A DNA stretch of 64,000 bases from Gammaproteobacteria bacterium (GCA_018823025.1 JAHJJI010000115.1:1833-65832), one strand, 5' to 3'. Positions 34,099 through 61,096 are shown, numbered from the stretch's first letter. Notes: a model not told the origin generated them from the sequence alone. Program-made: numbers and translations.

Positions 34099-35181
34099 AT
34101 GAGCATAGTCAAACGGGGAAACAGCAAGTACTGGTACATCCACTTCCAGTTCGATGGACAAATCCATATCAAATCTGCCAGAACAACCAATAAGAAAATT
34201 GCCGAGCAGATGGAGATTGAATGGAAAGCCAAGCTGCATTCTCAACAATATCAAGGCCGTAAACAGCGCCTCACACTGGCTGATGCATTCGAGCAGTACA
34301 AGGCATCCAAGAAAGGGATTTCCAGCTACGGAAACCTGATTGCCCATGAAACCGTGTTAATCCGACTTCTACCGATGAAAAAACACATGGATGAACTGAC
34401 ATCACACGATCTGGAGCGGTTTAAGCAGAAGCGTATAGCTGAAGGTGTAGGTGCAGAAATCATAAAGTATGGCTTGCTGCTGATTCACGGCACACGGAAA
34501 TTTGCTCAAAAATTAGGCTATCAGGTCAGCCCACTGGAATTTCCATCGGTAAAAATACCAAAGGTTCCATTGCGCTACCTGACCGAACAGGAGGAACGTC
34601 GCCTGCTAAATGAACTTGCTCCTAATCGTGAGGGTTCTGGCCTGAAGCCAATGGCTGAGCGCAGCGATGAATTGAAGCGGATGATGCAGGACGCCTATGA
34701 CTTGGTAATCCTGTTACTCGATACCGGAGCAAGATACAGTGAGATTGCCAATATCGAATGGTTCCGTATCAGTCTTGCAGAGAGGACAATTAACCTCTGG
34801 AGGACCAAGGTGCAGAATGAAACTGTGCTTTACATGACGGATCGGGTGTTCGATGTGCTATCTCGTAGATTGGCAACCAAAGCCAGCCCCTATGTGTTCA
34901 ACAACAGCAATGGCGAGGCTCGTGGTTACTGCACCCAATCAATCCGCAAAGCGATTTTACGCGCTGGATTACAAAATTGTAGGGTGCATACGTTGCGTCA
35001 CACCCTAGCCTCGAGGCTGATACAAAATGGAATGAGCGTTTACGAGGTTAGGGAGATTCTAGGGCATAGCGACCTCAAAACGACGATGCGCTACGCCCAC
35101 CTTGAACAGAAGCATGTAACAATCAAAGCTCGTGATGTAATTAATCGGCTAAATCAGATATCTGGGAAGAATGCCGTGTGA
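34099..35181 (+). CDS. Tyrosine site-specific integrase
   Basis: C-terminal catalytic region (LLLDTGARYSE...HTLRHTLASRLIQNGMSVYEVREILGHSDLKTTMRYAHL) shows the R...H-x-x-R...H...Y arrangement. Confidence 0.85.
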   Translation: MSIVKRGNSKYWYIHFQFDGQIHIKSARTTNKKIAEQMEIEWKAKLHSQQYQGRKQRLTLADAFEQYKASKKGISSYGNLIAHETVLIRLLPMKKHMDELTSHDLERFKQKRIAEGVGAEIIKYGLLLIHGTRKFAQKLGYQVSPLEFPSVKIPKVPLRYLTEQEERRLLNELAPNREGSGLKPMAERSDELKRMMQDAYDLVILLLDTGARYSEIANIEWFRISLAERTINLWRTKVQNETVLYMTDRVFDVLSRRLATKASPYVFNNSNGEARGYCTQSIRKAILRAGLQNCRVHTLRHTLASRLIQNGMSVYEVREILGHSDLKTTMRYAHLEQKHVTIKARDVINRLNQISGKNAV

Positions 35182-36244: not shown

Positions 36245-37897
36245 ATGAGAAAAATGAATGGAATAACAGTTCTGATAGCCAGCATCGCAATCCTTGTTAG
36301 TATTGTTGGGTGTGGTAAGAAAGAGTCTCAGCCAGCTGTTGCTCCCGTGGACGCGGCACCTACCGTTCAGGCCACTCTGGCTGCAGAATGCGCGGAGTTA
36401 AAATCAAAATCAACGCCGACTGGAAGCTCTGAAGGTATTGCAGAACCCAATTACCCAGGTTTCTCAACGGACGAATTCACCAAATTGGCTGAAAAGTTGA
36501 GTCAATCTGGAAGTTCGATAAAGCCGGAAGCAATGCTGATTTGGATGAATTTTAAGGCAAATCAAGAGAGAGACAAGATTTTCTCTTACGAAGCAAACCA
36601 CTCTCATTCCATTGATACTATTGCAGCTGTTTTAGAAAAACCATATGAAGATGAATTTGCAAAGCATATGTATTTATCCAATAGGATATTTGATGTATTT
36701 GGCACACCATTCGTAAGGAGTGGGCATGTCAGATTGGCTGAATCAAGCTCATTTGTCACGAGTCAAGAGGATGATTTTATCAGTGTAAATATTGATAAGC
36801 TGCATCTCAACCCGGAAGACGTAGAGGAACAAAAGGCTATTCTAGGAGGCACTCTCGTTTTATTTAGCGAATCTAATGGAGTCATTATTCCGGTCGAGCT
36901 TGCCATTCTCGACAAGGATTCTGGTGAGTACAAAATATACAACCTAGGGAAGCAGGAAAGTATTAATTTGAAAGCAGGTTTGGAAAAGAAGATCGTTGAG
37001 AATGCCAGAAAACTGGCAATCCAGAAATCAGGCGTCCCTCCCGACAATGTCGTGATATGGGAAACATCAAACAACGGTGCTAGCACCCCCGGAACAAGCC
37101 AAGCCAGAATTCATTTTAACCAGGTCAACTTTTCCACGGTGCAGGATTTGGCCGAATACATGGGAAGTTCAGCTCCACAAATTGATCCTAAAGGCGAATT
37201 TGAGAAAACAGACGACTATGAAAAACGCCTAGCACAGGCAAAAGTGGAATCGTCTAAAGACCAACTGCAGAAACTGTGTGGCAAAGATGCCAAGCGCAAT
37301 GAAATCATGGCGCCTTATCTCAATGGTGGCGGCCTCGGCAATCCAGTAGTCACTAACGTTACTTACAATGCGGATAAGGGGCAGTTTCTGCTACAGATAG
37401 CCTCAACGACGACGGATTACCGCCTTCCCATGGCTATTAATGTCGATCCAATCAAAGCACCAACGATGAAAGATGACATTGTCGGCATGAAACCGACAGT
37501 CGTGTATGAGTTGAAGGGCGAAATGTTGACTGCCCGAGCTATCCAGCTCATCGACCCCAAAACGGGCAACACCTACCACGTCAACTTCAATTCGCCGGTG
37601 AACCTCAAATTTAATGAAGCTTCCGCCAAGGAGTGGGCAGCTGAAAACGACAAAAAACTAGAAGAATTAGCCAAGCAACAAGCCATTGAAAAGGAAGCTC
37701 GTGAAAAATATGCGCGGGAACATCCAACATACGCTCGATTGATTATGAAAAAAATTAGAACTGACTGGCAGCCGTGCCAGAACTTCATAAATTTGCTTGG
37801 AATGATTGATAGATCTGGATCACCAGACTATATAAAGGAACGTCAGGTTGACAAAATAATTGATTCTGCCGATCGTGCCCGTTGCTTGGTTTATTAA
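36245..37897 (+). CDS. Lipoprotein, unknown function (cassette 2)
   Basis: MRKMNGITVLIASIAILVSIVGCGKKE. The 550-aa mature part is unrelated to its neighbours. Confidence 0.65.
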   Translation: MRKMNGITVLIASIAILVSIVGCGKKESQPAVAPVDAAPTVQATLAAECAELKSKSTPTGSSEGIAEPNYPGFSTDEFTKLAEKLSQSGSSIKPEAMLIWMNFKANQERDKIFSYEANHSHSIDTIAAVLEKPYEDEFAKHMYLSNRIFDVFGTPFVRSGHVRLAESSSFVTSQEDDFISVNIDKLHLNPEDVEEQKAILGGTLVLFSESNGVIIPVELAILDKDSGEYKIYNLGKQESINLKAGLEKKIVENARKLAIQKSGVPPDNVVIWETSNNGASTPGTSQARIHFNQVNFSTVQDLAEYMGSSAPQIDPKGEFEKTDDYEKRLAQAKVESSKDQLQKLCGKDAKRNEIMAPYLNGGGLGNPVVTNVTYNADKGQFLLQIASTTTDYRLPMAINVDPIKAPTMKDDIVGMKPTVVYELKGEMLTARAIQLIDPKTGNTYHVNFNSPVNLKFNEASAKEWAAENDKKLEELAKQQAIEKEAREKYAREHPTYARLIMKKIRTDWQPCQNFINLLGMIDRSGSPDYIKERQVDKIIDSADRARCLVY

Positions 37898-37968: not shown

Positions 37969-39198
37969 ATGAAAAATAAGAATGGTATAAAGGTGCTAGT
38001 CGCCTGCATTGCAATCATGATTGGTGTTGTTGGCTGCGGGAAAAAAGACGATAGCCAGAATTCAACATCTAGCGCAGAAAACCTCATTCTTTCAAAAATT
38101 GGCGCATCTTGCTCTCAACCTGGAAACGAAATTCAGATTTTTTTTAGGGATACAGTTATTCCAAATGGATCAAAAATCATGTCATCACAAGTGTGTGACA
38201 TGATGAATGATATGAATGCTAAGGAAATAGCTACCGTCAAAAAGTATACTAATGAGTGGCTGAATGGAGAGGATGGAATATGTAAGCTTATTGCTGAAAA
38301 AGCCTACGCACAATGGGGTTACGAAAGAGCTCTTGAAATTACTCAAATAGGACTAACTGCCAGCCAGGGACAATCTAATGAACACAATTCCAGAATGGTG
38401 TATAACGCCGTAAGAATTTGTCACTCAGACGAAACAAAAGAAAAATACTACAAAGAATCATATTCCGGGCGAACATTTGGCATATTTTCAGTGGGAACGA
38501 TCATCAATCCAACCACAAAGAAAACTTGCCCTGCTTACTTAGCAGAAATGACTGTTCAGTCAAATCGACAGGGTGTATCTACAGTCATGTACCCACTTCG
38601 TGCTTTAAATTGCGATGGCCTAGATTTGACTGCCTATGAAAAACCAGTTGATATGAAAGGCAATACATATATAGAAACGCTGAAATACAGCGGGACGTTA
38701 CCAGAATACTATATAAATTTTGAAGGGGATCGTGTTCCTTTCTTCAAGCCTGGTAGCCAGAATAATATCGCAACTGGTGTGGTCCCAGAGCAAGCCAGCC
38801 CCATCCCCTTGCCTCAGGAGCAGGTGAAAACCACTACTGCCGAGTCACCCAACAAAGAAGCACCGTACATTACTGAGGCAATAATAAAATTTTACGCCTG
38901 CAAAAAGTGCGACACCACAAAAAATCGGAAGCAATCCACCTATGAAGGGCGAATCGACAAGAGTCTAACCAAGGAGGGGGTCTACCGCTATTATCTGGAC
39001 ACCATTCAACCAGCCGAGATCATTATCATAGGTGATCGTTTACCTAAGCAGTTGGCTGATATTGGAAGAACAAAAATAAAACTGACGGGGACATTACTAA
39101 GTTTCTGCACTCCTGAAGAGGAGATTGACCCTAAGAGGGAAAATATTTGTTGGGCGTTTGAGCTATCTGAACCATTTGATATTATCAAACTTGAGTAG
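37969..39198 (+). CDS. Lipoprotein, unknown function (cassette 3)
   Basis: MKNKNGIKVLVACIAIMIGVVGCGKKD. The mature part is Cys-containing and unrelated to its neighbours. Confidence 0.65.
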   Translation: MKNKNGIKVLVACIAIMIGVVGCGKKDDSQNSTSSAENLILSKIGASCSQPGNEIQIFFRDTVIPNGSKIMSSQVCDMMNDMNAKEIATVKKYTNEWLNGEDGICKLIAEKAYAQWGYERALEITQIGLTASQGQSNEHNSRMVYNAVRICHSDETKEKYYKESYSGRTFGIFSVGTIINPTTKKTCPAYLAEMTVQSNRQGVSTVMYPLRALNCDGLDLTAYEKPVDMKGNTYIETLKYSGTLPEYYINFEGDRVPFFKPGSQNNIATGVVPEQASPIPLPQEQVKTTTAESPNKEAPYITEAIIKFYACKKCDTTKNRKQSTYEGRIDKSLTKEGVYRYYLDTIQPAEIIIIGDRLPKQLADIGRTKIKLTGTLLSFCTPEEEIDPKRENICWAFELSEPFDIIKLE

Positions 39199-39773: not shown

Positions 39774-41486
39774 ATGAAGCTAAAAACTATCCGCATCGAA
39801 AAATTCCGCGCGATTCGTTCATCGGAGATCCGCGTTAATTCTGAACTCGCCTTGGTGGGCCAGAACAGTGCTGGTAAATCTTCTGTGCTTCGAGCCTTAA
39901 ATGCATTCTTCAACTTCAATGATGAGAAGGAGGCATTTGATCTTGGCAGGCACAACTTCCAAAAAACATCCACTGCTGAGATTGACCTCAGCTTTGTGGA
40001 AACTCCTGTGGCGTGCACAATAGCTCGAGTAACAATTGGTGGAGATGAGGTTCGTGTACGACTTCGATTCAAACGTACTGATTCTTGGCAGGTTTACACT
40101 AACGGAATTTGGGCGTCTGTTGCTTCTGATTTTCACACTGAATTACGCAAATTTATCAGCTACGTTTACGTGCCACTACGCCGGGATCATGAGATATCTG
40201 GGTGGGGTGATCACGGACTTTTGCAGACAGCCGTTGAGGCTTGGGTCAAGCACCACACGAGTAGGCGGGATAGCATAAGCCCTAGAGTTGCGGAGCTCGG
40301 ACAAATGATCCAGCGAAGGGCTTTTGATGGCTTGAGTAAGCAGCTAAGAAAGGTTACTCCAATCAATGGAGCCTTCACATTCAACCTAGAGTACACGCGC
40401 CCTCCTGACTATAGCTTGCTTCTTAGGGATCTTATTCTTCGTGTTACAGAGGGAACCACCACAGTAGACCTTCAAGACTGTGGTAGTGGAACACAGAGCA
40501 TGACTGCATTTGCGCTCTACTCTTACCTTGCCGAGTTGGAAGGCAATACTTATATCTTGGGTATTGAAGAGCCCGAACAAAACCTGCATCCTCAAGCACA
40601 ACGCGAACTGCTAGCAAACCTTCGTGCGCTCCCATTGCAGGTGCTATTTACAACACATTCGACAGTAATACTCGATGATTTACGCCACGATGAAGTTGTC
40701 TTGTGTCGTCGCGTCAAATCTGCCACACGAGGTATTGAGGTTACAACCACCCAGTTAGCCGCAACATTTTGGTCCACGTCAGGCCTCAACGAGGAACGCT
40801 ATTATCACTTTTACCGTCGTAGGAATTCGGAATTCTTTTTTTCGAACTTTGTCATCCTAACAGAAAGCCCGATTGATGCTGAGCTAGTGAAAGAACTCCT
40901 GCGTCAAGCAAAGACAGATACAGTTACTCACTCTGTGTCTATTCTCAGCGTCGATGGAGTCCAATCATTGCCATATGCATATCATCTCCTACGTGCACTC
41001 GATTTAGATTTCGCAACCGTCGTTGATAAGGACTATTTCATGCCGTATCTACACGATGAGCTAGAAACTAGCAGAGATGCGCGAGGATTTCCCCGTTACC
41101 GCAAGGAGTTTAACAAAGGGACATTGCTGGAGAACATGCTGCCAAGCACTGCTGAACGGGCAACGCTGTTGAACCTCTTCCACGGCAACCATTCTCGAGC
41201 AATGGACATTCTAGAAAAATTCAATGTGTTTTGTTTTAAGTGGTCACTAGAAATCGACCTGGTTAACTCAACCACAGCTCGCCAGCTGCTGTTTCAAGGG
41301 CTAAATATTGCCGGTGGAGACCAAACAACAAATACTTTGTTGGTCACCCGGAAAAAGGCGCTTAAAAAACTTGAGACCCTTCTTCCGGTTGTCCAAGGAG
41401 TTCAGCCATCAAACCTCCCTAACTCTTACAAGAGACTGAGGAGAACCCTGCCTGACCTCATTAAAAAAACTGGTTTTTTACACTAA
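39774..41486 (+). CDS. OLD-family ATP-dependent endonuclease (ABC-type ATPase + Toprim)
   Basis: Walker A GQNSAGKSS, signature-like GSGTQS, Walker B ILGIEEPEQNLHP. The C-terminal Toprim-like region has ILTESPID...SVDGVQS...VVDKD. Confidence 0.75.
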   Translation: MKLKTIRIEKFRAIRSSEIRVNSELALVGQNSAGKSSVLRALNAFFNFNDEKEAFDLGRHNFQKTSTAEIDLSFVETPVACTIARVTIGGDEVRVRLRFKRTDSWQVYTNGIWASVASDFHTELRKFISYVYVPLRRDHEISGWGDHGLLQTAVEAWVKHHTSRRDSISPRVAELGQMIQRRAFDGLSKQLRKVTPINGAFTFNLEYTRPPDYSLLLRDLILRVTEGTTTVDLQDCGSGTQSMTAFALYSYLAELEGNTYILGIEEPEQNLHPQAQRELLANLRALPLQVLFTTHSTVILDDLRHDEVVLCRRVKSATRGIEVTTTQLAATFWSTSGLNEERYYHFYRRRNSEFFFSNFVILTESPIDAELVKELLRQAKTDTVTHSVSILSVDGVQSLPYAYHLLRALDLDFATVVDKDYFMPYLHDELETSRDARGFPRYRKEFNKGTLLENMLPSTAERATLLNLFHGNHSRAMDILEKFNVFCFKWSLEIDLVNSTTARQLLFQGLNIAGGDQTTNTLLVTRKKALKKLETLLPVVQGVQPSNLPNSYKRLRRTLPDLIKKTGFLH

Positions 41487-41775: not shown

Positions 41776-41991
41776 GATGACACTTGCGCGGCAATGGCAG
41801 CGCTTTTGGAAGAGCGACACCAGGCCAAGATGCCGCCACACGAAGCAACATGCACAAGATACAAGCTATCGGGGATCCGGCTACTTAGCAGATGCCTACT
41901 GGCCATCAATATGTATTATTATGGCATATTGAAAATTCACATTTTTGAGCTCCTCCACTACATTCACTCTTGTTTCTGATCGCCACCACTT

Positions 41992-44694
41992 ATGAACATT
42001 GCCGAGATTGAATCGTCGCTCAAAAACCTGGGTGAAACACCATTTGATGCCGACACCTTCATTTATCGTTTTTTAGATATTTACGATGCCCCAAAAGCAA
42101 CAGTAACCAAGCTTCGCCAAGGCACAACGAATCAAACCAAGGAACCTGGCGATCTACTCTGGAAAAACAAACTATTTTTCCGCGTTACCGAAAAAGGCCA
42201 GACCGCCACAGCGGTTGACACCATGTTGGCCGATCCACTGACTAAGAAATACACCCCCCGTTTTTTATTGGCAACTGATGGTGAGGAAGTTTATTGCCGG
42301 GACATCAAGACTGACCAAACGCAGGACTCCCGCTTTGACAGACTGAACGATATTTTTGATTTTTTCCTCCCTCTCGCCGGGATTGAGCGCTATGAGGGAG
42401 TAGCGGAAAACCCCGCAGATATCAAAGCGACTGCTCGACTCGCCAAACTCTACGATGCCATTCTGGAAGCCAACCCGGAATGGGTGGGAAATGACCACAC
42501 CCACGAACTCAACATTTTCATGACACGCATGCTGTTCTGCTTTTTTGCGGAAGATACGTCAATATTTGAAAAGGACTTGTTCACCACAACTTTAATGACG
42601 TTGACCCGAGAGGATGGTACCGACACATCCTCTGTTTTGGAAACCGTCTTTGCGGCCATGAACACGTCAGACAAAGGGCGTGAAGGTTTGCCGGAGTTCG
42701 CCAGACGTTTCCCGTTCGTCAATGGCGGTTTGTTTCATGACAAGACTCCAATCCCGAAATTTTCCAAGCGCGCACGGCGGTTATTGAAAGAGTGCGGCGA
42801 ATTGCATTGGAAAGATATTAACCCGGATATTTTCGGCTCAATGATTCAAGCCGTGGTCGAGCCAGGTATGCGCGGCGATATGGGTATGCACTATACGTCC
42901 GTGCCCAACATCATGAAGGTATTGCAGCCGTTATTCCTGATGTCGTTGGAAGACGAGTTTGAATCTGCCCGTGATAGTGAAGCCAAGCTGCAGAAGCTAT
43001 TGCAACGCATCTATAACATCCGTGTATTCGACCCTGCCTGCGGATCCGGCAATTTCCTCATCATTGCCTATCGGGAACTACGCAAGATTGAGTCCCGGAT
43101 CTTTGCACGCCAAAAGGAAATTGCTAGGCAATGGTTGCTACCGATGACAGGAGTGCGACTCACCCAGTTTTTTGGGATCGAGCTTGCCGACTTCGCTGTG
43201 GAAACCGCGAAACTTTCACTGTGGATCGCCGAATATCAAATGAACGAGCAGTTCAAGGCTCAGTTTGGTACAGCCCCACCAGCACTGCCACTTCGTGATA
43301 GCGGAAATATCGTGCATGGGAATGCCACCCGATTGGATTGGTTGGAGGTCTGCCCACACATAGAGGGCGGCGAGACCTATATCGTGGGTAATCCGCCATA
43401 TTTAGGCGGTAAAAAACTCAGCAGTGGCCAATCAGAAGACATGGATGTTGCCGGTCTAGCAAAGATGAAGCAACTAGACTATATAGGTTGTTGGTTTGTA
43501 AAAGCGGCAAACCACATTGCTGAATCAGACTCTGAGTTTGCATTTGTGACCACCAGTTCTGTGTGCCAAGGCGAGCAAGTTCACTTGCTTTGGTCATATA
43601 TTTTCAAGAAAAATTTAGAAATTAGTTTTGCCCATGAACCATTCGCTTGGTCAAACAATGCCAAGAATAATGCAGGTGTTTTTTGCGTAATCGTAGGAGT
43701 TAAACAGATTGGCAAAAAATATCAGAAATGGATTTTCTCTGGAGCGCACGGAAGAAAGGCAAAAAACATAAGTCCATACTTGGTTGAGGGACCTTCTATT
43801 TTTGCAGTCCCTTCCACTAAGGTGTTAACAAGCTTGCCTCCAATGTGCATGGGCAGCAATCCTGTTGATGGTAAGCATCTAATTCTTGATCGCAAAGAAT
43901 ATGAGCAGCTTATTCAATCGCAACCAAATGCTGGAAGTTTTATGAAGAGGTATATGGGCGGGGAGGACTTCCTGAGTGGAAATCACCGTTATTGCATATG
44001 GATTGAGGAAGATGAAGTAAACGACGCTTGTGAAATTCCATTCATAAAGCACCGATTGGAAAGTTGCAAAATATATAGAAAAACTGCTGGTCGAGACGCG
44101 AAGAAATCAGCAGAAAAACCGTATCGATTTTGTTATAAAACACACCAAAATACATCCGCAATAATCTTTCCAAACACAAGTGCCGCAAGTAGAAACTACG
44201 TTCCTGGTGGTTTCACAGACGAAAATACGGTTATCAATAAAGATGCCTTTGCTATCTATGCTCCAGATGCATATGTTCTAGGGTTGCTGACCTCAACCCT
44301 TCATAGAGTATGGTTAGCAGCGGTAGGTGGTCGGCTCGGCATTGGGTACCGATATTCAGTGAAACTCGTCTACAATAATTTCCCGGTTCCCGAACTCTCT
44401 TCTAATCAGAAGCAATCGCTTGAAGACCATACTTGGGCGATCATTAATGCTCGCGAAGCACATCCCGGAAAAACAATGGCCTGGCTGTATGATCCTGCGA
44501 CCATGCCGGCAAACCTCTTGAAGGCTCACCAAGAACTGGATGATTCCCTGGAAGGCATATACATAGGCCGTCCATTCAAGAACGATGTTGAGCGGTTGGA
44601 ACACTTATTCAAACTCTACGCGAACATGATCAAAAAAGTACAAACAGCCAAAGCTACAAAACAACCGAGTTTGATTTCGACAGGAGCTGCTTGA
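41992..44694 (+). CDS. MmeI-family (Type IIL/ISP-like) N6-adenine DNA methyltransferase with target-recognition domain
   Basis: 900 aa. LFCFFAEDTSIFEKDLF, HYTSVPNIMKVLQPLF, FDPACGSGNFLIIAYRELR (motif I) and IVGNPPYLGG (motif IV). Colinear with MmeI along its length as I recall that sequence. Confidence 0.8.
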   Translation: MNIAEIESSLKNLGETPFDADTFIYRFLDIYDAPKATVTKLRQGTTNQTKEPGDLLWKNKLFFRVTEKGQTATAVDTMLADPLTKKYTPRFLLATDGEEVYCRDIKTDQTQDSRFDRLNDIFDFFLPLAGIERYEGVAENPADIKATARLAKLYDAILEANPEWVGNDHTHELNIFMTRMLFCFFAEDTSIFEKDLFTTTLMTLTREDGTDTSSVLETVFAAMNTSDKGREGLPEFARRFPFVNGGLFHDKTPIPKFSKRARRLLKECGELHWKDINPDIFGSMIQAVVEPGMRGDMGMHYTSVPNIMKVLQPLFLMSLEDEFESARDSEAKLQKLLQRIYNIRVFDPACGSGNFLIIAYRELRKIESRIFARQKEIARQWLLPMTGVRLTQFFGIELADFAVETAKLSLWIAEYQMNEQFKAQFGTAPPALPLRDSGNIVHGNATRLDWLEVCPHIEGGETYIVGNPPYLGGKKLSSGQSEDMDVAGLAKMKQLDYIGCWFVKAANHIAESDSEFAFVTTSSVCQGEQVHLLWSYIFKKNLEISFAHEPFAWSNNAKNNAGVFCVIVGVKQIGKKYQKWIFSGAHGRKAKNISPYLVEGPSIFAVPSTKVLTSLPPMCMGSNPVDGKHLILDRKEYEQLIQSQPNAGSFMKRYMGGEDFLSGNHRYCIWIEEDEVNDACEIPFIKHRLESCKIYRKTAGRDAKKSAEKPYRFCYKTHQNTSAIIFPNTSAASRNYVPGGFTDENTVINKDAFAIYAPDAYVLGLLTSTLHRVWLAAVGGRLGIGYRYSVKLVYNNFPVPELSSNQKQSLEDHTWAIINAREAHPGKTMAWLYDPATMPANLLKAHQELDDSLEGIYIGRPFKNDVERLEHLFKLYANMIKKVQTAKATKQPSLISTGAA

Positions 44695-46670
44695 TGGCCG
44701 ATTTTGTCACCGTAAATTATGCCCAGACCGGCGCAAGCCAAAATACCAACCAATACGGCATGCGGGCCATGCAGGCGCGGGCGTTTGATGCACGGAATTC
44801 CCAATATTTACTGGTCAAAGCACCGCCAGCGTCCGGCAAATCACGCGCCCTGATGTTCATCGGTTTGGACAAGCTTGAGAATCAAGGCATCAAAAAAGTG
44901 ATCGTCGCCGTGCCAGAACGATCCATCGGCGCATCATTCAAGTCCACCAAGTTAGGCGATGGAGGATTTTTTAGTGACTGGGTGGTTAATCCACAATGGA
45001 ACCTTACCGATGCGGGCTGCACGCAAAAGACTAAAGCCTTCGCTGATTTCATGGCTTCCAATGACAGCATTTTAGTCTGTACCCATGCCACGCTCCGTTT
45101 TGCGTTCGATCAACTGGGTGCCGCTGCCTTTGCAAACAGTGTGATCGCCATTGATGAGTTTCATCATGTTTCCGCCGACGAGAACAATCGCCTGGGCGAG
45201 GTGGTTAGAGCTCTTATGGTGGATGGCCGTTCTCACATTGTAGCCATGACCGGATCTTACTTTCGTGGCGACACAACCCCAGTGTTGCGCCCCGAGGACG
45301 AGGCACGCTTTACCCGTGTCAGCTACACCTATTATGAGCAGCTAAACGGGTATCGTGACCTGAAAACATTGGGTATTGGCTATCATTTTTATCGTGGTCG
45401 CTATGTTGATGCGATCAATGAAATTCTTGACCCCTACCTCAAAACCATTGTTCATATCCCCAGTGTTCGTTCGGCGGAGTCAACAACCGACAAATATACG
45501 GAAGTTGACCGAATTCTCGACCATCTAGGAGAAGTGGTCGGTAAGGACCCAGATACAGGATTCGATCTTGTGCGGCGTGCTGATGGCAAAATCATCAAGG
45601 TAGCCGACCTAGTGGACGACAATCTGGGCCGTGAAAAAGTCATGCTTGCACTACGTGATATAAAAGGGCGGGATGATGTCGATATCATCATTGCCTTGGG
45701 CATGGCTAAGGAAGGGTTCGATTGGATTTGGTGTGAACATGCGCTTACTGTAGGTTATCGAGGTTCTTTAACCGAAATTATCCAGATTATTGGGCGCTCG
45801 ACACGAGATGCACCCGGAAAATCTCACGCACAGTTCACCAATTTAATCGCCGAACCCGATGCAAGTGAAGATCGAGTCACCGATGCCGTCAATAATATGC
45901 TTAAAGCTATTGCGTGCTCGCTTTTGATGGAACAGGTACTAGCCCCTAATTTCAAGTTCAAGACCAGGCTGGATGCGGACGAGTTGGACGGTAGTCGACG
46001 AGAGAGCAACATCGCATACACTGGGGACGATAATATCATTGCAATCCGTGGATTCGCCGAACCCTCCACTGCTCGTACCAGACAGATACTCGAAAGCGAT
46101 TTGAATGACCTTTCAGCGGCGATCTTTCAGGATGAAGCCGTTTTGCGCGCGGCAATGAATCCGGATGAATATGCCCCAGAGGTAGTCAATCAGGTATTTA
46201 TTCCCAAAGTTATAGCTCGACAATATCCTGATCTGACTAGCAACGAAGTTGAAGAGGTACGCCAAGCAGTTGTGGCAAATGGCATTTTTAAGAGCCCAAC
46301 TGTCACTGTCGAACAGCAGGCCGATATTAAGTTTGTTCGGATGGCCGAAAGACTTATTAACATCGATGAAATCAACATTGACTTGATAGACAGCATCAAT
46401 CCCTTCCAACGAGCTTACGAAATTTTGTCCAAGTCAGTTACTGCCGATGTACTTAAAACCATACATGGCGCGATCACCTCCACCAAGATCGCCATGAGTG
46501 AAGAAGAAGCTGTTTCTCTTTACCCACGTATTAAAGCTTTTGTTGCTGAGAAAAAGGTAGAGCCCAGTCTTGTGAGTCCGAATCCGCTGGAACGAAGAAT
46601 GGCTGAGGCGTTAGCCTGGATACGTGAAGCCAAGCGCCGCAAGATGGCAGCCTCACCGCAGGAAGCTTAA
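44694..46670 (+). CDS. SF2 (DEAH-type) helicase
   Basis: Motif I APPASGKS, motif II DEFHH, motif III TGS, motif VI QIIGRSTRD. The start overlaps the methyltransferase stop (TGATG). Confidence 0.8.
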   Translation: MADFVTVNYAQTGASQNTNQYGMRAMQARAFDARNSQYLLVKAPPASGKSRALMFIGLDKLENQGIKKVIVAVPERSIGASFKSTKLGDGGFFSDWVVNPQWNLTDAGCTQKTKAFADFMASNDSILVCTHATLRFAFDQLGAAAFANSVIAIDEFHHVSADENNRLGEVVRALMVDGRSHIVAMTGSYFRGDTTPVLRPEDEARFTRVSYTYYEQLNGYRDLKTLGIGYHFYRGRYVDAINEILDPYLKTIVHIPSVRSAESTTDKYTEVDRILDHLGEVVGKDPDTGFDLVRRADGKIIKVADLVDDNLGREKVMLALRDIKGRDDVDIIIALGMAKEGFDWIWCEHALTVGYRGSLTEIIQIIGRSTRDAPGKSHAQFTNLIAEPDASEDRVTDAVNNMLKAIACSLLMEQVLAPNFKFKTRLDADELDGSRRESNIAYTGDDNIIAIRGFAEPSTARTRQILESDLNDLSAAIFQDEAVLRAAMNPDEYAPEVVNQVFIPKVIARQYPDLTSNEVEEVRQAVVANGIFKSPTVTVEQQADIKFVRMAERLINIDEINIDLIDSINPFQRAYEILSKSVTADVLKTIHGAITSTKIAMSEEEAVSLYPRIKAFVAEKKVEPSLVSPNPLERRMAEALAWIREAKRRKMAASPQEA

Positions 46671-46674
46671 AGCT

Positions 46675-47877
46675 ATGGTGCGCCAAACGCTAGACGATGT
46701 ATTGGCCGAGAATGACGACTTGGGTTTGCTGAATGTAAAACCGCACTCATCCAACTCCAGCACCGACGCAGTTCGCATTCAGCAGGCATTCGAAGAGGTC
46801 AATGTATTTGTTGATCGTCATCATTTCTCCCCCGGCGAAGGACAGAATGGTGAAAAGATTTCAGTAAGCGAGCGCACTCTACAAATGCGCCTTAAAACCT
46901 ATCGGGATCAACCAGACATATCTGCCCTATTGAAAGAAACAGACCGTCATGGTTTGTTAACAAGTCTGACTAAACAACCGCCACCACCGGCCAGTTTGGA
47001 CGACATTCTTGCTTTGGATGACGAACTACTTTCTGACCCAAACGAAGATATTTTTACATTTCGGCATGCTCGCCCAGCAGCAGCCCGTCCAGACAAGATA
47101 TCCGAACGTAAACCATGCCTTGATTTTGAGCAGTTCAAACCGCTATTCGATCAAGCGATTGATGATTTGGCAACAGGCGAACGTAAGAGTATGAAATTTG
47201 CCAATGAACAGGAGATCGAGGCTGGAGGGTTCTTCATTCTGAATGGTGTAATGGTCTATGTTGCCGAGGTAAACGACCCACATATTCGCAATGGAAAGCG
47301 TAATGCCCGACTCAGACTGATTTTTGAAAACGGCACTGAGGGGCAAAATTTGCTTAGGTCTCTGGCGACAGAGCTTTATAAAGACCCCAACGGTCGCCGC
47401 CTTTCTGACCCTAATGCCGGACCACTCTTTGATGCCAGACCTACCACTGCCACAGTAGCCAGTCCGAATGATCGCATCACGGGGTGCATTTATGTTGTAC
47501 GGAGCCTTTCGCCGTCCCCAGAAATTGCCAAACTTGATGGCCATCTTTTTAAAATCGGCTTCACTACAGGCACTTTTGAAGACCGTATTCGCGGAGCAAA
47601 GGATGACCCAACTTTTCTGTTGGCCGCAGTTCATCCCGTCCGAACTTACGATGCGATTAACCTTAATGCCAATAAATTTGAGAGTTTGGTACACCGGTTT
47701 TTCGCCGATGCACGGCTAGACATCGAAATCATGGATCGATTCGGCAAGCCATGTCGGCCAAGAGAATGGTTCCTACTTCCTCTTCCGGTTATTGAGGCGG
47801 CCATTACAATGCTGCTTGATGGTTCTATCTTGCGACATAGGTATGACCTGGTTTCGTGCGCCATTGTCCCTGTGTAG
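46675..47877 (+). CDS. T5orf172 (MUG113/GIY-YIG-like) domain protein
   Basis: ATG lies 4 nt after the helicase stop. The C-terminal domain has CIYVVRS...LFKIGFTTG..EDRI...PREWF, typical of T5orf172. Confidence 0.7.
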   Translation: MVRQTLDDVLAENDDLGLLNVKPHSSNSSTDAVRIQQAFEEVNVFVDRHHFSPGEGQNGEKISVSERTLQMRLKTYRDQPDISALLKETDRHGLLTSLTKQPPPPASLDDILALDDELLSDPNEDIFTFRHARPAAARPDKISERKPCLDFEQFKPLFDQAIDDLATGERKSMKFANEQEIEAGGFFILNGVMVYVAEVNDPHIRNGKRNARLRLIFENGTEGQNLLRSLATELYKDPNGRRLSDPNAGPLFDARPTTATVASPNDRITGCIYVVRSLSPSPEIAKLDGHLFKIGFTTGTFEDRIRGAKDDPTFLLAAVHPVRTYDAINLNANKFESLVHRFFADARLDIEIMDRFGKPCRPREWFLLPLPVIEAAITMLLDGSILRHRYDLVSCAIVPV

Positions 47878-48275: not shown

Positions 48276-49991
48276 TCACTCCATGTTCTCGGCTTCAGCT
48301 TCGAGATTTGTTGCTTCAATAATACCTGTAACACGTTTGATCTCTTGCCAAAGTCGAGCCTCACGCCAAGCAAGGAATGCGTCGTAGTCGTCGGTCCAGA
48401 ACGGCGCACTGTCACCTGTAGGTAAGCAATGTGATGAAAGAATAGCGTCAAACGGAAAGCCATCTGTACTGCGGATTACTGATAGATAGTCGGAGGGTGC
48501 ACGATTGCTGATCATTTGATTGGTCGTCCGATCAATCAATGTTCGATTCAGGACGCAGTCTCTAGCACGTGCTAACTTTATGCCCTTCTGTTTCTCCAGG
48601 AAATCAGCAGGGAAAATATGGTGATCATCAATACCCTCTTCACTCATTAGCTTGCCCGTAATAACTGCCTGAGTATGAAAATCCCGTGCACCTGTCTCGT
48701 TTCCAAGGATTAGGCACATGACCCCGCGATAAATCGAACGCTGTCTGGGAGTCACATCTCGTAATGCCTTGGGATCGAAGCGAAGTCCTACAACGGTCTC
48801 GGGTAAAACACCGCCTTCAAACCAAGAAACCAATTCAGCGACATCTTTTGCTGCTTGGCTGTTGGGTGAACTCTCGTAAGCTTGACCAAATACAGCACAC
48901 CAAAACCAGCGCTTGAGTTTCTCTCTTTGAGCGCCAGCCTCGGCAGTTTTCGGCTGACCAGACTTAGCCAGAACAGCCGCCATCGGCGAAAGCATGGTCT
49001 GATAAGGCAACCATTTCGGCAGGACCACCTTGCAATCATCTCTCAGCATATTAAGACTCGCTGTCAGCCCTGCAATAACCTTAGGCCACCATATTTCAAT
49101 GTCAGAAGCCGTGAGATTCAGGACCTCACTACGTTTACATGAAGGAGATTTCCGGCTCGCCAGAGCAATGGCTTGCAAGATGTAATAGGGATCGACCTCG
49201 TAATCAGTGATGATTGGATTTTCTTCTTTAGCCTTATCCCACAGGTCTCGTAGGTTAATTTTTAGTGGCCAGAACCTTGCTGTCAGCAATTCAAAAACAC
49301 TGAGCTTAACGCCCGTTCTATTAAGCGTTTCGAAAATGGTGCACAGAGCATCCGGTTCAGTCTTGTCTGAAAGTGTAACGACGGGGAAGTGGTAGTCATC
49401 AATGACCTGAATCCACTTCTGATCGATATCGTCGAGAGTATCCTCCAAGGCGATACGGTCTTGGTCAGGCAGTTGGCGAGCTACTTTGCGACTCCACTGG
49501 CCGAAACCACCTGCCCCTCCTTTCAGCAAACTCAAAGGAAGGAGAAGTTCTTTCGCTTGAAGTTCAAAGCTCTCCCGAGCCTTTGCCCACTTGGTCGTGG
49601 CACGCACATGAAATATTGCTTCCTCAAAATCAGCACCATGTAGCAGTTTATTTAGATCAAGGTAATAGCGGTGTTCGCCAACGCCGTAGAAAGCCTGATA
49701 GAGCGATGTGAGTCGTTGTTGTCCATCGAGAACTAGAAACGTGTGCGACTTTCCGTCAAGAGCGGGCGCCCCTTCAAATTCTCTGGCAGCAAATACACGT
49801 TGAGCATCACGCACACGTAGGATGCTGCCAGCTGGGTAATTGTTAGCAATGGAAACGATCAATTCCTGCGTAGCACCAGGTTCCCAGACAAAATCACGCT
49901 GAAAGTCAGGCAACACCATCGCCCGAGAGTGAACGTCGCTCAATAAATCTTTTAAAGCGCGGGGGTTTGTGTCTTCAAATAAATTCATCAA
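48276..49991 (-). CDS. GmrSD-like DUF262 + DUF1524/His-Me (HNH) domain protein (Type IV restriction-like)
   Basis: N-terminal LPDFQRDFVWE and LVLDGQQRLTSL (DUF262/ParB-like NTPase). C-terminal IDDHHIFP...NRTLID..TN (His-Me finger). Confidence 0.8.
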   Translation of the reverse strand: MMNLFEDTNPRALKDLLSDVHSRAMVLPDFQRDFVWEPGATQELIVSIANNYPAGSILRVRDAQRVFAAREFEGAPALDGKSHTFLVLDGQQRLTSLYQAFYGVGEHRYYLDLNKLLHGADFEEAIFHVRATTKWAKARESFELQAKELLLPLSLLKGGAGGFGQWSRKVARQLPDQDRIALEDTLDDIDQKWIQVIDDYHFPVVTLSDKTEPDALCTIFETLNRTGVKLSVFELLTARFWPLKINLRDLWDKAKEENPIITDYEVDPYYILQAIALASRKSPSCKRSEVLNLTASDIEIWWPKVIAGLTASLNMLRDDCKVVLPKWLPYQTMLSPMAAVLAKSGQPKTAEAGAQREKLKRWFWCAVFGQAYESSPNSQAAKDVAELVSWFEGGVLPETVVGLRFDPKALRDVTPRQRSIYRGVMCLILGNETGARDFHTQAVITGKLMSEEGIDDHHIFPADFLEKQKGIKLARARDCVLNRTLIDRTTNQMISNRAPSDYLSVIRSTDGFPFDAILSSHCLPTGDSAPFWTDDYDAFLAWREARLWQEIKRVTGIIEATNLEAEAENME

Positions 49992-50832: not shown

Positions 50833-53589
50833 TCAAGAAGCAGCATACCCACTTGGTAAGGCGGATAATTTATTCTGGCTTTCAATCAGGTCTGGATGCT
50901 GGGATTCGAACTTGCGTTCAAAAATGTCCACGGCCTTGCTATAGCACTCCTTTGCGCCTGAAAAATCATTTTTGTCGCGCAGCACGTCTCCAAGTATTAC
51001 TAGGGCATTGGCAATCCATGGATGGTCAGGTGTATGACCCAGCCTCAAATCCTCCAAAGCCCTCCGGGAGTGTTGTTCAGCATCGGAGAGATTCCCCTGT
51101 TGCCGCAGGACGCTGGCCAACCACATGCGACCCCGGGCGGTGCGCCTATTCTGGGGGCCATATTTCAATTCTCGAATTTTTAGGCACTTGCTAATCAGCT
51201 CGGCTGCATCATCAAAATTACCAATATCCAGAAGTAGCAAACCCAGATTTAAGTAGCTGAAGGCGGTACTGGGATGATCTTCACCATACTCATGTACGCG
51301 AATCTCAACCGAACGGAGCAGCATAGGCTCAGCCTCGTCAAAGTTACCTTCACGACGAAGCAGGCTGCCCAGATTCGAGTAACGTAGTGCCAGCTTTGGA
51401 TGATCAGGCGGGTAGTAGCGAAGTGAAGTTTCCAACAGCCGGCGATAGAACTGTTCAGCCTCGTCGTAAAGCCCCATTTTCACTAGAGCAGAACCAAGGT
51501 TGTTCAAAGCCACCTGAACATCCGGATGATCCGGTGGCAAGCTATTCTCTCGATGAGCCAGAATTCGTCGATAAATAACAGCCTCTCCAGCATAGTCTCC
51601 ATATCGTCCTGCTATCAACAAAGCAAGAGTTCCCAGAGTGCGAAACACATCCGAATGTTCGCTTCCCAATAGCCGCTCCCGAATAGACAAGGCTTGGCGA
51701 ATCAACGTTTCGGCCTCAGCGAACTCTCCCCGAGCAGACAATGCAGAACCCAGCAGACTCATATATCTGGCAGAGTTCTTATGGAATTCACCATTAGCTT
51801 CTAAACAGATCGCCAGCGCCCTTCGTCGCATTTTAATGGCGCCGTCGAAATCCGAATGCTCTAAAACGATAACAGAAGCCAGTCCCGACAAGGTTGACGC
51901 CACATCGGGATGATTTTCGCCTAGCAGACGCTCCCTAATGTCCAGAGCTCGCCGGTAGAGAGATTCCGCCTCAGATAGCCGCCTTTGTTTGGAGTAAACC
52001 CTGGCAAGGTTGTGCAGGCTGGTTGCAGCGAGTGGATGCTCCCGTCCGAGCGTCCTCTCACGTAGTTCCAGCTGACGCTCTAGGATCGGTTGAATTGCCA
52101 CATAAGCTGCGGCCTTGCGGAACGGATCAAACCGTTTATCGAGCCAATCGGATTTGGCAAAAGCCTCCGGGTCCGCCTGTTCCAGATGATAGCTTGCCTC
52201 ATCAAGGGCACGGATGGCTGCCAGCGTCACATCAATGAGTGATAACACCTCGGCCCTAGGTTGCCAGAAGGCCGCGACCACCTCATGCATCCGGTGGAAA
52301 AAGGATGGGTCTTCACGTCTCGTGCGCTCAATCAGATAGTCGTGCATCAAAGCATGCATGGTACAACTCCCATCGGGTTGGCATGTGATGAAGCTCTGAC
52401 TCTTTAACTCGTTAAAACTTATTTGATGCACCTCTCCAGGCATGGCTTGGCGAAGGGCGTCGAACAATACCTCGTCAAAAATACGGGTGTGGGCTAGAGC
52501 ACGCAAAGCTGAGGCAAGAGCCGGGCTACAATGGCTGATGAAGCGTTCGATGATCTGTGGATGGTTCCCCCCGAAGTGGTCAACACTCGGCGTCATATCC
52601 TTGTTACGTATAGCTTCATAAACGTCGGCTTCGAGGTCCAAGTAGAAAGGAACGCCTTTGGCAGCAGTAACGATGCGGCTGATGATATCGGGTTCGGCGA
52701 TGGGAATGCCTCTTAAAAACTGATAAGCATCTTCGTCCGACAATTCTCCCATCAAATGTTGATCAAGGAACTCGGCCCAGGATGGATCGATCTCCTCCCA
52801 ACGCAGCCGATCACGACCAAGGACCACTAGAAGCACGCCAGGCATTTCAGCAGCCATGTCCCGTACCCACTTGTCCGCCAGCAAACCACCCCTGCCCTGC
52901 CAGAGCTGTTCATAGGTGTCGAGAAATACCACTAACCGGCGTGGTGAGTCGCTATGTTCCTGATAGTGAAGAATGTCAGAGCCGAGGTACTTGGGGAGCG
53001 ACTCATAAAGCTCTTGAGCCGTCATTTCCTCAATTTCGTTGATCAGGCTGCGCCCTCTCGCCTGGTACCACTGTCTACCCCAGTCTGAAGCTTGCTTTAA
53101 TAAGGCCAAAACTGGAAGGCCAGAGGCAATATTTACTGCCAGATCAGCCAACTCTGCCCAATCAGGGAGATTGCCCCCGAATAGTTCTGGATAGTGATCC
53201 TTTGCTGAAGCGCCAGGGCGCGTTTTCGCGAAATAGCTGAGGAAAGCCCGATTGAAAGCAGGAAACGCTAAACCAGCACGTTCTCCCAAAGCTAGACGGA
53301 TGTACAGCAGTGCTTGTTCTTGCGAGCGCGCCTCGGGGGCGGCAAAGTCCACGTGCGCCCAAGCAATCTTTTTTTCATGTTTTCCAACATCTGCGACGTC
53401 ATTGAGAAACTCCCGGCACAGACGGGTTTTACCGTGCCCTCCAGCACCGTAAATAACAAGTACACGATACTGCGTGGGCGATTGAGGCGTGTAAAGGTTT
53501 TGATGGAATAGGTCGACAATTTCGACCCGGTCTGTGAATTTTTTCTGGGCGATAAAGCTCTTGGGCAAATGAGATGGACGTGGGCACAT
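50833..53589 (-). CDS. STAND NTPase: NB-ARC-like P-loop domain + C-terminal TPR array, no N-terminal effector domain
   Basis: Walker A GAGGHGKT near aa 50, Walker B LVVFLDTYE, then about 10 TPR units of the LA.SLHNLA..Y...G....AE.LY.RAL.IRE type. Confidence 0.75.
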   Translation of the reverse strand: MCPRPSHLPKSFIAQKKFTDRVEIVDLFHQNLYTPQSPTQYRVLVIYGAGGHGKTRLCREFLNDVADVGKHEKKIAWAHVDFAAPEARSQEQALLYIRLALGERAGLAFPAFNRAFLSYFAKTRPGASAKDHYPELFGGNLPDWAELADLAVNIASGLPVLALLKQASDWGRQWYQARGRSLINEIEEMTAQELYESLPKYLGSDILHYQEHSDSPRRLVVFLDTYEQLWQGRGGLLADKWVRDMAAEMPGVLLVVLGRDRLRWEEIDPSWAEFLDQHLMGELSDEDAYQFLRGIPIAEPDIISRIVTAAKGVPFYLDLEADVYEAIRNKDMTPSVDHFGGNHPQIIERFISHCSPALASALRALAHTRIFDEVLFDALRQAMPGEVHQISFNELKSQSFITCQPDGSCTMHALMHDYLIERTRREDPSFFHRMHEVVAAFWQPRAEVLSLIDVTLAAIRALDEASYHLEQADPEAFAKSDWLDKRFDPFRKAAAYVAIQPILERQLELRERTLGREHPLAATSLHNLARVYSKQRRLSEAESLYRRALDIRERLLGENHPDVASTLSGLASVIVLEHSDFDGAIKMRRRALAICLEANGEFHKNSARYMSLLGSALSARGEFAEAETLIRQALSIRERLLGSEHSDVFRTLGTLALLIAGRYGDYAGEAVIYRRILAHRENSLPPDHPDVQVALNNLGSALVKMGLYDEAEQFYRRLLETSLRYYPPDHPKLALRYSNLGSLLRREGNFDEAEPMLLRSVEIRVHEYGEDHPSTAFSYLNLGLLLLDIGNFDDAAELISKCLKIRELKYGPQNRRTARGRMWLASVLRQQGNLSDAEQHSRRALEDLRLGHTPDHPWIANALVILGDVLRDKNDFSGAKECYSKAVDIFERKFESQHPDLIESQNKLSALPSGYAAS

Positions 53590-60291: not shown

Positions 60292-61014
60292 TTAATTAAT
60301 TGGTGCTATTCCTCGGCATTTAGGAAACGTGGCACACCCCCAGAACTGATTGCCTGCATTGGCTCCTTGCTTGGCTGTCCGCTTGATCATGGCACTTCCA
60401 CATTTTGGACAGCTGGGCTCGGCCGATTTTATTAATTTCGGGGACGTATCTGGCACCGAATGGCGATCGTTGAGTGAATCTATGTGCAGCCTACGTGTTG
60501 CCCATGTCCTTGGCAGCTTGCCTGTCTGGATAGCTTCAACAATCAGCTCAACTTCATCATCCGGGAACAATACTTCAGTTTTGCTTTTGATGTATGACGA
60601 GTAACCCTTATCCAGTACATTTTCAGGCATGGGTGTCTTGAACGTGCTCTCACCCCAGAACATCACCACAGAATGAAGCTTGTTATGCTCAATACCCAAA
60701 AACTCCGACAAGCACTTGGTATGTCGGTAATTCTGGCGCAGTGGATTTTGAAACTTGAACTTGCCTCCAGAAAAAGATTGCGTCCATTCGGCTGATTTTT
60801 CATTGCCGAAGATCCAGCCATTCATGTTTTTTGCTTCAATCACAAAAATACCATAGCGAGAAACAATGACGTGGTCGATCTGAGTCGTACCATCCGGAGT
60901 TGGAATGGTTACATTGTTGAGTTCACGGTAGATGCTGCTGTCTAGCATGACCTTATGCGCTAGAGAGCCCATCGCCTCGCCAACAAACCCTTTAAATATC
61001 GACATCAAGCCCAT
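60292..61014 (-). CDS. NERD-domain protein with C-terminal topoisomerase-type C4 zinc finger
   Basis: I prefer the start at ATG 61014 (MGLMSIFKG). The ORF-track start (61155) lies inside the IS element. NERD core (IDHVIVSRYGIFVIEAKN) and CPKCGSAM...FWGCATFPKCRG. Confidence 0.7.
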   Translation of the reverse strand: MGLMSIFKGFVGEAMGSLAHKVMLDSSIYRELNNVTIPTPDGTTQIDHVIVSRYGIFVIEAKNMNGWIFGNEKSAEWTQSFSGGKFKFQNPLRQNYRHTKCLSEFLGIEHNKLHSVVMFWGESTFKTPMPENVLDKGYSSYIKSKTEVLFPDDEVELIVEAIQTGKLPRTWATRRLHIDSLNDRHSVPDTSPKLIKSAEPSCPKCGSAMIKRTAKQGANAGNQFWGCATFPKCRGIAPIN

Positions 61015-61096
61015 TTGTCGTCCGTTTTTGTTATGAGGGTGACCTGCCCCCATTAGAAGTGCCATCGGCATCCTAGTAAAATCCAAAGTTGTAACA

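Follow-up and report, generated by a model that had tools for sequence, protein, structure and literature searches.

A full-length dnmA(yeeA)–yeeB–yeeC-like locus in a low-GC island of a gammaproteobacterium

Homologues of MmeI were divided by Morgan et al. in 2009 into two sets, of which the second lacks the PD-ExK nuclease motif in the N-terminal ~100 residues and is "invariably" flanked by genes for a DEAD helicase (YeeB-like) and a protein with a GIY-YIG motif (YeeC-like) (PMC2731913). That study detected no endonuclease activity in YeeA or in a homologue from Moraxella osloensis. Its authors put forward, as a speculation, that the MmeI-like subunit confers specificity and modifies one strand, and that the helicase and the nuclease are recruited by its altered N-terminal domain, in a Type I-like arrangement (PMC2731913). 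A 2012 paper on Type ISP enzymes again mentioned related restriction–modification (R-M) enzymes that have helicase subunits and GIY-YIG nucleases associated with them (PMC3553950). The methyltransferase of the Bacillus subtilis cluster is M.BsuPY79I, and Nye et al. (2020) showed that B. subtilis DnmA makes N6-methyladenine (m6A) at GACGAG (PMC7261158). In Vibrio crassostreae 7F1_18, yeeAB mediates resistance to one phage group, and inactivation restored sensitivity (bioRxiv 10.1101/2021.05.05.442762). Here we describe three genes at positions 41992–47877 of a 64,000-nucleotide stretch of DNA from a Gammaproteobacteria bacterium (GCA_018823025.1 JAHJJI010000115.1:1833-65832; the whole stretch is called the window below). 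They almost certainly represent the dnmA(yeeA)–yeeB–yeeC module, in a full-length copy that appears functional. The trio, its lack of the nuclease motif and the idea of a split enzyme all date back to 2009 in the literature, and the locus is one more member of this family.

The three open reading frames (ORFs) are intact, lie on the plus strand and are translationally coupled. The first, yeeA/dnmA-like (41992–44694), encodes a 900-amino-acid MmeI-family N6-adenine methyltransferase with a fused target recognition domain (TRD) and a predicted nuclease-dead N-terminal domain. The second, yeeB-like (44694–46670; 658 amino acids from its ATG), encodes a superfamily 2 (SF2) DExH helicase/translocase, assigned from the Pfam families DEAD and ResIII and from homology to YeeB. 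The third, yeeC-like (46675–47877; 400 amino acids from its ATG), encodes a protein with a C-terminal T5orf172/GIY-YIG domain, assigned from Pfam (T5orf172, MUG113) and from homology to YeeC. At the first junction the stop codon TGA (44692–44694) and the ATG starting at 44694 have one A in common, a one-base overlap within TGATG at 44692–44696, and no cargo is inserted. At the second, the stop codon TAA (46668–46670) is followed by a 4-nucleotide gap, AGCT at 46671–46674, and by the ATG at 46675. The translational linkage claimed in a preliminary description of this DNA is thus confirmed in the sequence. The order of methyltransferase, helicase (+1) and T5orf172 protein (+2) equals the synteny reported in PMC9973331. 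For comparison, one genome per GTDB species was scanned, which gave at least 570 stretches encoding helicase relatives; the locus counts below refer to the best 80 of these helicase-anchored loci, all from other genomes.

The methyltransferase carries all five MmeI domains in order according to Pfam (MmeI_N 93 bits, MmeI_hel 82, MmeI_Mtase 343, MmeI_TRD 220 and MmeI_C 75) and is collinear with the MmeI chain 5HR4 (phmmer E 8e-172), as stated in the preliminary description, which included the motifs FDPACGSGNF and NPPY. Motif I, FDPACGSGNF, is encoded at 43027–43056 (residues 346–355) and is at least 95% conserved among 61 methyltransferase homologues; motif IV, NPPY (43390–43401, residues 467–470), is also conserved and corresponds to the region of the catalytic Y465 of B. 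subtilis DnmA (PMC7261158). The TRD, the hypervariable part of the protein, extends over 43789–44397 (residues 600–802; Pfam MmeI_TRD E 4e-65). The N-terminal domain (41992–42468, residues 1–159) matches MmeI_N with E 3.5e-26; it appears to keep the fold and has lost the catalytic triad. The phmmer alignment to 5HR4 puts D70, E80 and K82 of MmeI on D54, R64 and T66 of GDLLWKNKLFFRVTEK, encoded at 42148–42195, so that the position of D70-x9-E80-x-K82 here reads D54...R64-V-T66. The preliminary description had given these triad residues and placed R-V-T at the E-X-K positions, and the alignment agrees on both points.

An intact PD-ExK site in the N-terminal domain was sought as a possible refutation and is absent, both by the 5HR4 alignment and among about 60 full-length methyltransferase homologues from related loci, none of which has an acidic-x-Lys pair at the columns of E80 and K82. 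The D70 column is likewise variable in this set. A shifted E-x-K starting from E67-K68 was considered and rejected, being out of register on the strand and not conserved among the homologues. Judged from these alignments the MmeI-like nuclease site is degenerate and intrinsic cleavage is not expected. The PADLOC model REase_MTase_IIG (PDLC03598) matches the methyltransferase over its full length with 929 bits. Since R64 and T66 stand where MmeI has E and K, it would nevertheless be wrong to class the protein as a Type IIL/IIG restriction enzyme.

The helicase shows motif I (KAPPASGKSR, 44817–44846), motif II (DEFHH, 45153–45167) and motif VI (QIIGRSTRD, 45783–45809), all on the plus strand. 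Its Pfam matches to DEAD and ResIII are just over the cut-off. In BLASTP it is 57% identical to B. subtilis YeeB over residues 1–613 (693 bits) and 52% identical to V. crassostreae YeeB (674 bits). Motifs I (PPASGKSRA), II (DEFHH), III (MTGSYFRGD) and VI (QIIGRxTRD) are invariant in 80 helicases, and all 8000 helicase candidates that were scored passed E <= 1e-5. PADLOC gave only weak Cas3 and PbeA matches to this protein. No relatives of the helicase were found in the PDB, either by a single-sequence search or with an 80-sequence profile. The AlphaFold2 model is poor, with a predicted local distance difference test score (pLDDT) of 58, probably because the alignment is shallow (78–93% identity). 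The top Foldseek matches of this low-confidence model are to HsdR of EcoR124I (E about 1e-5, TM-scores 0.2–0.26).

For a gene of defence islands, that of the YeeB helicase shows unusual conservation. Over the window and loci L001–L083 pairwise identity averages about 64% across phyla, the proteins of Proteobacteria and Firmicutes are about 50–57% identical, and more than 100 columns of the alignment are invariant.

In the third protein, Pfam places the T5orf172/MUG113 domain at 47482–47808 (residues 270–378). Among 65 T5orf172 proteins G270, Y273, K293, G295, R304, E364 and W365 are invariant, and these residues match the signature of the GIY-YIG superfamily (GIY, YIG-like, Arg and Glu). The earlier reading of the last two genes as a helicase and a GIY-YIG-related T5orf172 protein is therefore upheld by Pfam and by motif conservation. 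In BLASTP the protein reaches 38% identity with B. subtilis YeeC (E 8e-73) and 32% with V. crassostreae YeeC (E 4e-62), and these alignments span the N-terminal region and the T5orf172 domain alike. A search with this protein returned 2721 proteins at E <= 1e-5 among 8000 candidates scored. PADLOC gave no match, and no PDB relatives were detected by single-sequence search or with a 65-sequence profile. The AlphaFold2 model (mean pLDDT 65) is confident only at residues 270–400. Because Foldseek found no significant match for it in the PDB, the basis of the GIY-YIG assignment is Pfam together with motifs in the sequence.

No Pfam family covers the N-terminal two-thirds of this protein (residues 1–265; 46675–47470), and AlphaFold models this region with low confidence. 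The region contains the invariant residues P53, E66, F158, G191 and R212, and the motif NARLRLIFENGTE is common to the window, B. subtilis and Vibrio proteins. From this pattern it appears to be an uncharacterised conserved domain.

The YeeB and YeeC reference sequences used in these comparisons were machine-read from Fig. S5 of PMC9973331 and carry minor noise from optical character recognition; the assembled lengths are 603, 679, 374 and 411 amino acids, against stated lengths of 599, 674, 382 and 415. All defining features of YeeABC that are testable by sequence are found at the locus, namely a PD-ExK-less MmeI homologue, a YeeB homologue and a YeeC homologue in the expected order and on one strand. 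The window helicase and T5orf172 protein moreover keep C-terminal extensions that are found in Vibrio and missing from the B. subtilis proteins. YeeB (599 amino acids) and YeeC (382 amino acids) of B. subtilis are C-terminally shorter, and the authors of the mBio study considered that this loss might explain the inactive B. subtilis locus (PMC9973331). A helicase homologue with 50% identity on a plasmid of Acetobacter pasteurianus is already named 'DNA helicase restriction/modification system component YeeB' in RefSeq, and its gene is flanked by those of a 902-amino-acid DNA methyltransferase and a GIY-YIG nuclease family protein.

The preliminary description did not recognise the trio as a named system; it is the dnmA(yeeA)–yeeB–yeeC cluster and in that sense was essentially already catalogued. 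Its suggestion of a split Type ISP/IIL-like enzyme is reasonable, but is the hypothesis of Morgan et al. from 2009 (PMC2731913) and is biochemically unproven. That the trio has no dedicated defence-system label holds true: PADLOC-DB v2 would give only 'Type IIG', from the methyltransferase, and since it has no dedicated models for YeeB or YeeC, automated tools report Type IIG only. The missing models, together with the lack of PDB relatives of the helicase and the T5orf172 protein, could be taken to indicate a defence system that had so far escaped recognition, a split Type ISP enzyme of a new kind. To this we assign next to no probability, since the architecture, the loss of PD-ExK, the flanking genes and the split Type I-like idea were published in 2009 and revisited in 2012, 2020, 2021 and 2023, and the window proteins have direct sequence homology to YeeB and YeeC.

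Co-occurrence of the three genes outside the window genome was one of the checks that the preliminary description had called for. A T5orf172 gene lies directly 3' of the helicase gene in 79 of the 80 related loci, the single exception being cut by a contig end. An MmeI-like gene is found nearby on the same strand in 73 of them, upstream in all except L075, where it is downstream; the loci without it are mostly cut contigs or carry long inserts. The co-occurrence of the trio is far above chance. The hosts belong to the Alpha-, Beta- and Gammaproteobacteria, Verrucomicrobia, Planctomycetes, Bacteroidetes, Cyanobacteria, Acidobacteria, Nitrospirae and other groups. The helicase also matches 265 plasmid records, including plasmids of Firmicutes, and among these are Lactobacillaceae plasmids at about 52% identity. 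No conserved non-coding or small-ORF elements were detected up- or downstream of the trio by blastn or tblastx, and the conserved unit therefore seems to consist of the three genes alone.

Within this conserved module the TRD behaves differently from the rest. The closest genome locus, L001 from a Gallionella metagenome-assembled genome, encodes a helicase 90% identical and a T5orf172 protein 80% identical to those of the window. Its methyltransferase is 82% identical in the N-terminal domain, 88% in the helical spacer and 68% in the methyltransferase core, with only 34% identity in the TRD. Over all locus pairs, the identity of the N-terminal domain follows that of the helicase (Spearman 0.88), whereas TRD identity, with a mean of 40%, is largely decoupled from it (Spearman 0.42); the pairs are not independent and both coefficients are descriptive only. 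This pattern, drawn from sequence comparison, suggests specificity switching through TRD exchange on a conserved chassis, and it is also compatible with an N-terminal domain that co-evolves with the partner proteins. Because the window TRD differs from those of the known members, its recognition sequence presumably differs from theirs as well.

The window TRD is 31–34% identical to those of L001, L002 and L010, whose helicases are 74–90% identical to the window helicase.

The two junctions of the operon also differ in their constancy. In the related loci the helicase and T5orf172 genes nearly always share an 8-nucleotide overlap, and in about half of the loci 0.3–2.8 kb of cargo, mostly on the same strand, is inserted between the methyltransferase gene and that of the helicase, with longer inserts in L032 and L065. 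The cargo includes RhuM, Fic, YhcG/DUF1016, GmrSD_N, PDDEXK_4, AbiEi/AbiEii, TIR and DUF4145 genes, and on a Moraxella plasmid RelB/YafQ and a DUF4433–macro pair. Examples, from loci in the range L013–L077 and others, are L026:5870-7853, L020:6832-7965, L054:6827-7891, L045:6268-7974, L041:6667-7974, L032:266-7934, L059:637-2631 and L082:2564-4914. The junction looks like an insertion hotspot for defence and toxin–antitoxin genes, much as Type I hsd operons have genes embedded in them.

A conserved fourth gene at the methyltransferase–helicase junction was considered and rejected, as the inserts are heterogeneous and no cluster of them occurs in more than four loci.

The tight helicase–T5orf172 overlap, the cargo that splits the methyltransferase gene from the helicase gene in about half of the loci and the one locus with the methyltransferase downstream would fit the view that the helicase and T5orf172 protein are a self-contained effector pair, for example for abortive infection or as a modification-sensing nuclease, located beside an independent methyltransferase. 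Several observations make this decidedly unlikely. The methyltransferase gene is present in 73 of the 80 loci, with exceptions that are mostly cut contigs, and its N-terminal domain co-diverges with the helicase (the coefficient of 0.88 given above). All methyltransferases of the locus set are without a nuclease of their own, which makes sense only if cutting is delegated, and the Vibrio phenotype was assigned to yeeAB and not to the helicase alone. Type I hsd operons, moreover, carry similar cargo between hsdM/S and hsdR and yet form one enzyme.

An ATP-dependent, one-strand-methylating restriction system is the likeliest function, and as a whole we think this mechanism fairly probable for the window locus. 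The MmeI-like subunit would read an asymmetric site of ~6–7 bp through its TRD and so discriminate self from non-self. It would modify a single adenine on one strand of the host DNA, as shown for members of the family. The degenerate N-terminal domain probably docks onto YeeB and YeeC or signals to them. At unmethylated foreign sites the complex would activate the DExH motor of YeeB, with ATP hydrolysis and translocation like those of Type I HsdR and Type ISP enzymes, after which the GIY-YIG/T5orf172 nuclease of YeeC would cut the DNA. By analogy with Type ISP and Type III enzymes, methylation of one strand would be safe for the host if cleavage needs two convergent unmodified sites. Type ISP and Type III enzymes achieve self-protection under one-strand methylation by such a site-orientation rule. 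Other features of the locus are typical of R-M systems: the TRD diverges on its own, the genes lie in a low-GC island beside OLD-family and GmrSD-like genes, and there is no second methyltransferase adjacent.

A number of points weigh against this mechanism. The B. subtilis locus does not restrict plasmid uptake or transformation (PMC7261158), the B. subtilis cluster gave no protection from three phages in the 2023 mBio study of DnmA localization (PMC9973331), and the B. subtilis methylation motif is not depleted in phage genomes (PMC7261158, PMC9973331). DnmA is still listed as an orphan methyltransferase in a 2025 EcoSal Plus review. In the searchable literature we found no biochemical reconstitution of any YeeABC system, and no nuclease activity of YeeC is reported. 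The Foldseek search of the T5orf172 model leaves the GIY-YIG fold without structural confirmation, and the resemblance of the helicase to HsdR, coming from a low-confidence model, is a weak hint. Translocation, docking by the N-terminal domain and the rule on site orientation are inferred.

Some of these observations would fit a methyltransferase that is an orphan or regulatory enzyme, with yeeB and yeeC as inactive relics, as in the model proposed for B. subtilis, where DnmA methylation tunes promoter activity and the neighbouring genes are without effect. There the lack of plasmid and phage restriction goes together with effects of m6A on gene expression (PMC7261158, PMC9973331), a Streptococcus mutans methyltransferase with the YeeA motif was interpreted as regulatory, and the orphan label of the 2025 review points the same way. 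For the window locus we regard this as unlikely. Relics would not hold the helicase and GIY-YIG motifs invariant across phyla, nor the translational coupling in 79 of 80 loci. Judging by the motif conservation in the helicase, GIY-YIG and methyltransferase sequences, catalysis is under purifying selection in each of the three proteins, which speaks against relics. In addition, the window proteins retain the C-terminal segments that were lost in B. subtilis, the Vibrio cluster does defend, and the window trio is situated in a mobile low-GC defence island and not in a core regulatory context.

The YeeABC clusters of B. subtilis and V. crassostreae have the same three genes in the same order and orientation, a PD-ExK-less MmeI-like methyltransferase, no second methyltransferase and a location in a low-GC mobile region. 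The window TRD differs from theirs, the window proteins are full length as in Vibrio and longer than those of B. subtilis, and the host is another bacterium, with about 57% GC. MmeI and other Type IIL enzymes share the collinear five domains, the motifs of a gamma-class N6-adenine methyltransferase and the fused TRD, and one-strand modification is expected in both cases. They differ in the intact D70/E80/K82, which is D54/R64/T66 in the window, and in the absence of the two extra genes. The presence of these genes suggests ATP-dependent cutting and not cutting at the fixed distance of 18–20 bp used by MmeI.

The Type ISP enzymes LlaGI and LlaBIII have the same list of parts, a nuclease, an SF2 motor, a gamma-class adenine methyltransferase and a TRD, and share asymmetric sites and single-strand methylation; a relationship to the MmeI family has been noted (PMC3553950). 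In these enzymes the parts form a single chain with an Mrr-type PD-(D/E)XK nuclease, whereas the window has three ORFs, a T5orf172/GIY-YIG candidate nuclease, and the methyltransferase–TRD gene in first position. Type I enzymes (HsdM/HsdS/HsdR, for example EcoR124I) resemble the window system in that a methylation and specificity unit is separate from the motor and nuclease, and both can have variable cargo between the gene sets. They differ by HsdS, a bipartite site and two-strand methylation; in the window the motor and nuclease are on separate chains and the candidate nuclease is predicted to have another fold. No HsdS or HsdM genes were found in the flanks of the trio.

Membership in DISARM, BREX or MADS was considered and rejected, as matches are partial and confined to the methyltransferase core, with PglX far below the cut-off, and no partner genes are present in the flanks. 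A functional likeness to BREX is a separate matter: phage exclusion might proceed without cutting, with the methyltransferase marking self, the helicase remodelling unmarked DNA or blocking its replication, and the T5orf172 protein binding DNA. The weak matches of the methyltransferase to the BREX PglX and DISARM DrmMI models would agree with this, as would the unreported nuclease activity of YeeC and the T5orf172 domain itself, which is largely uncharacterised and has predicted DNA-binding roles (PMC9973331). We consider it very unlikely, because the GIY-YIG catalytic-type residues Y273, R304 and E364 are invariant, the BREX and DISARM partners PglZ, BrxC and DrmA/B/C are missing from the locus, and the PglX and DrmMI matches are limited to the shared methyltransferase core and lie far under the family cut-offs.

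Extending the restriction mechanism to the whole family, YeeABC could be a distinct, unclassified ATP-dependent R-M type, composed of a one-strand-methylating MmeI-type reader, an HsdR-like motor and a GIY-YIG nuclease, of which the window copy is possibly active. The methyltransferase–helicase junction may in addition be a conserved landing site for auxiliary defence and toxin–antitoxin cargo, including DarTG-like genes, and as such possibly never described for the YeeABC family. We advance this joint reading only tentatively, with doubt slightly outweighing belief.

The trio is located in a region of 43–50% GC that starts near 30 kb, the rest of the window having about 57% GC. This low-GC island (~30000–60000) begins just past a ComEC-like gene (27799–29358), and no tRNA gene was found at the island boundary. 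A tyrosine integrase gene lies in the island at 34099–35181. Directly 5' of the trio, on the plus strand, is a gene for a 570-amino-acid protein with an OLD-family ATPase and a TOPRIM nuclease domain (39774–41486; PADLOC Old 137 bits, GajA 109 bits); a GajB-like helicase gene is not evident beside it. Upstream of the OLD gene, two ORFs of 550 (36245–37897) and 409 amino acids (37969–39198) have no Pfam or PADLOC match. Convergent with the trio, on the minus strand, is a gene for a 570-amino-acid GmrSD_N (DUF262) protein (48276–49991) with PADLOC matches to PDC-M55C and HEC-05; this gene probably serves modification-dependent (Type IV-like) restriction. The GmrSD_N neighbour is also present on the metagenome contigs L084 and L085. 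The helicase representative P0001, listed with 100% identity to the window helicase, occurs on two metagenome contigs with the same neighbours.

Further along the minus strand follow a gene for a 918-amino-acid protein (50833–53589), with TPR_12/TPR_10 repeats in its C-terminal half and no family for the N-terminal ~500 residues, and a 906-amino-acid ORF (56750–59470) without Pfam or PADLOC match; both are possible uncharacterised defence genes. Near the far end of the island are genes for a NERD/Zn-ribbon protein (60292–61155) and an IS3-type transposase (61097–61930), also on the minus strand. A consensus scan gave a weak sigma-70-like promoter match on the plus strand at 41936–41964 (9 of 12 positions), 28 nucleotides 5' of the first ATG. 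With three such matches in the scanned region against ~10 expected by chance this match is not evidence of function, and the promoter and terminator scan around the trio was uninformative.

As a discovery the window locus has little weight, since it adds one member to a published family. The YeeABC family itself is worth attention: it is very common, strongly conserved and genetically shown to protect a Vibrio from phage. Its mechanism has yet to be reconstituted, two of its three proteins lack a solved structure, and PADLOC has no dedicated model for it. Annotation pipelines therefore mislabel YeeABC, either as a Type IIG enzyme or as an orphan methylase. For the missing biochemistry, a full-length copy like that in the window is a reasonable candidate.

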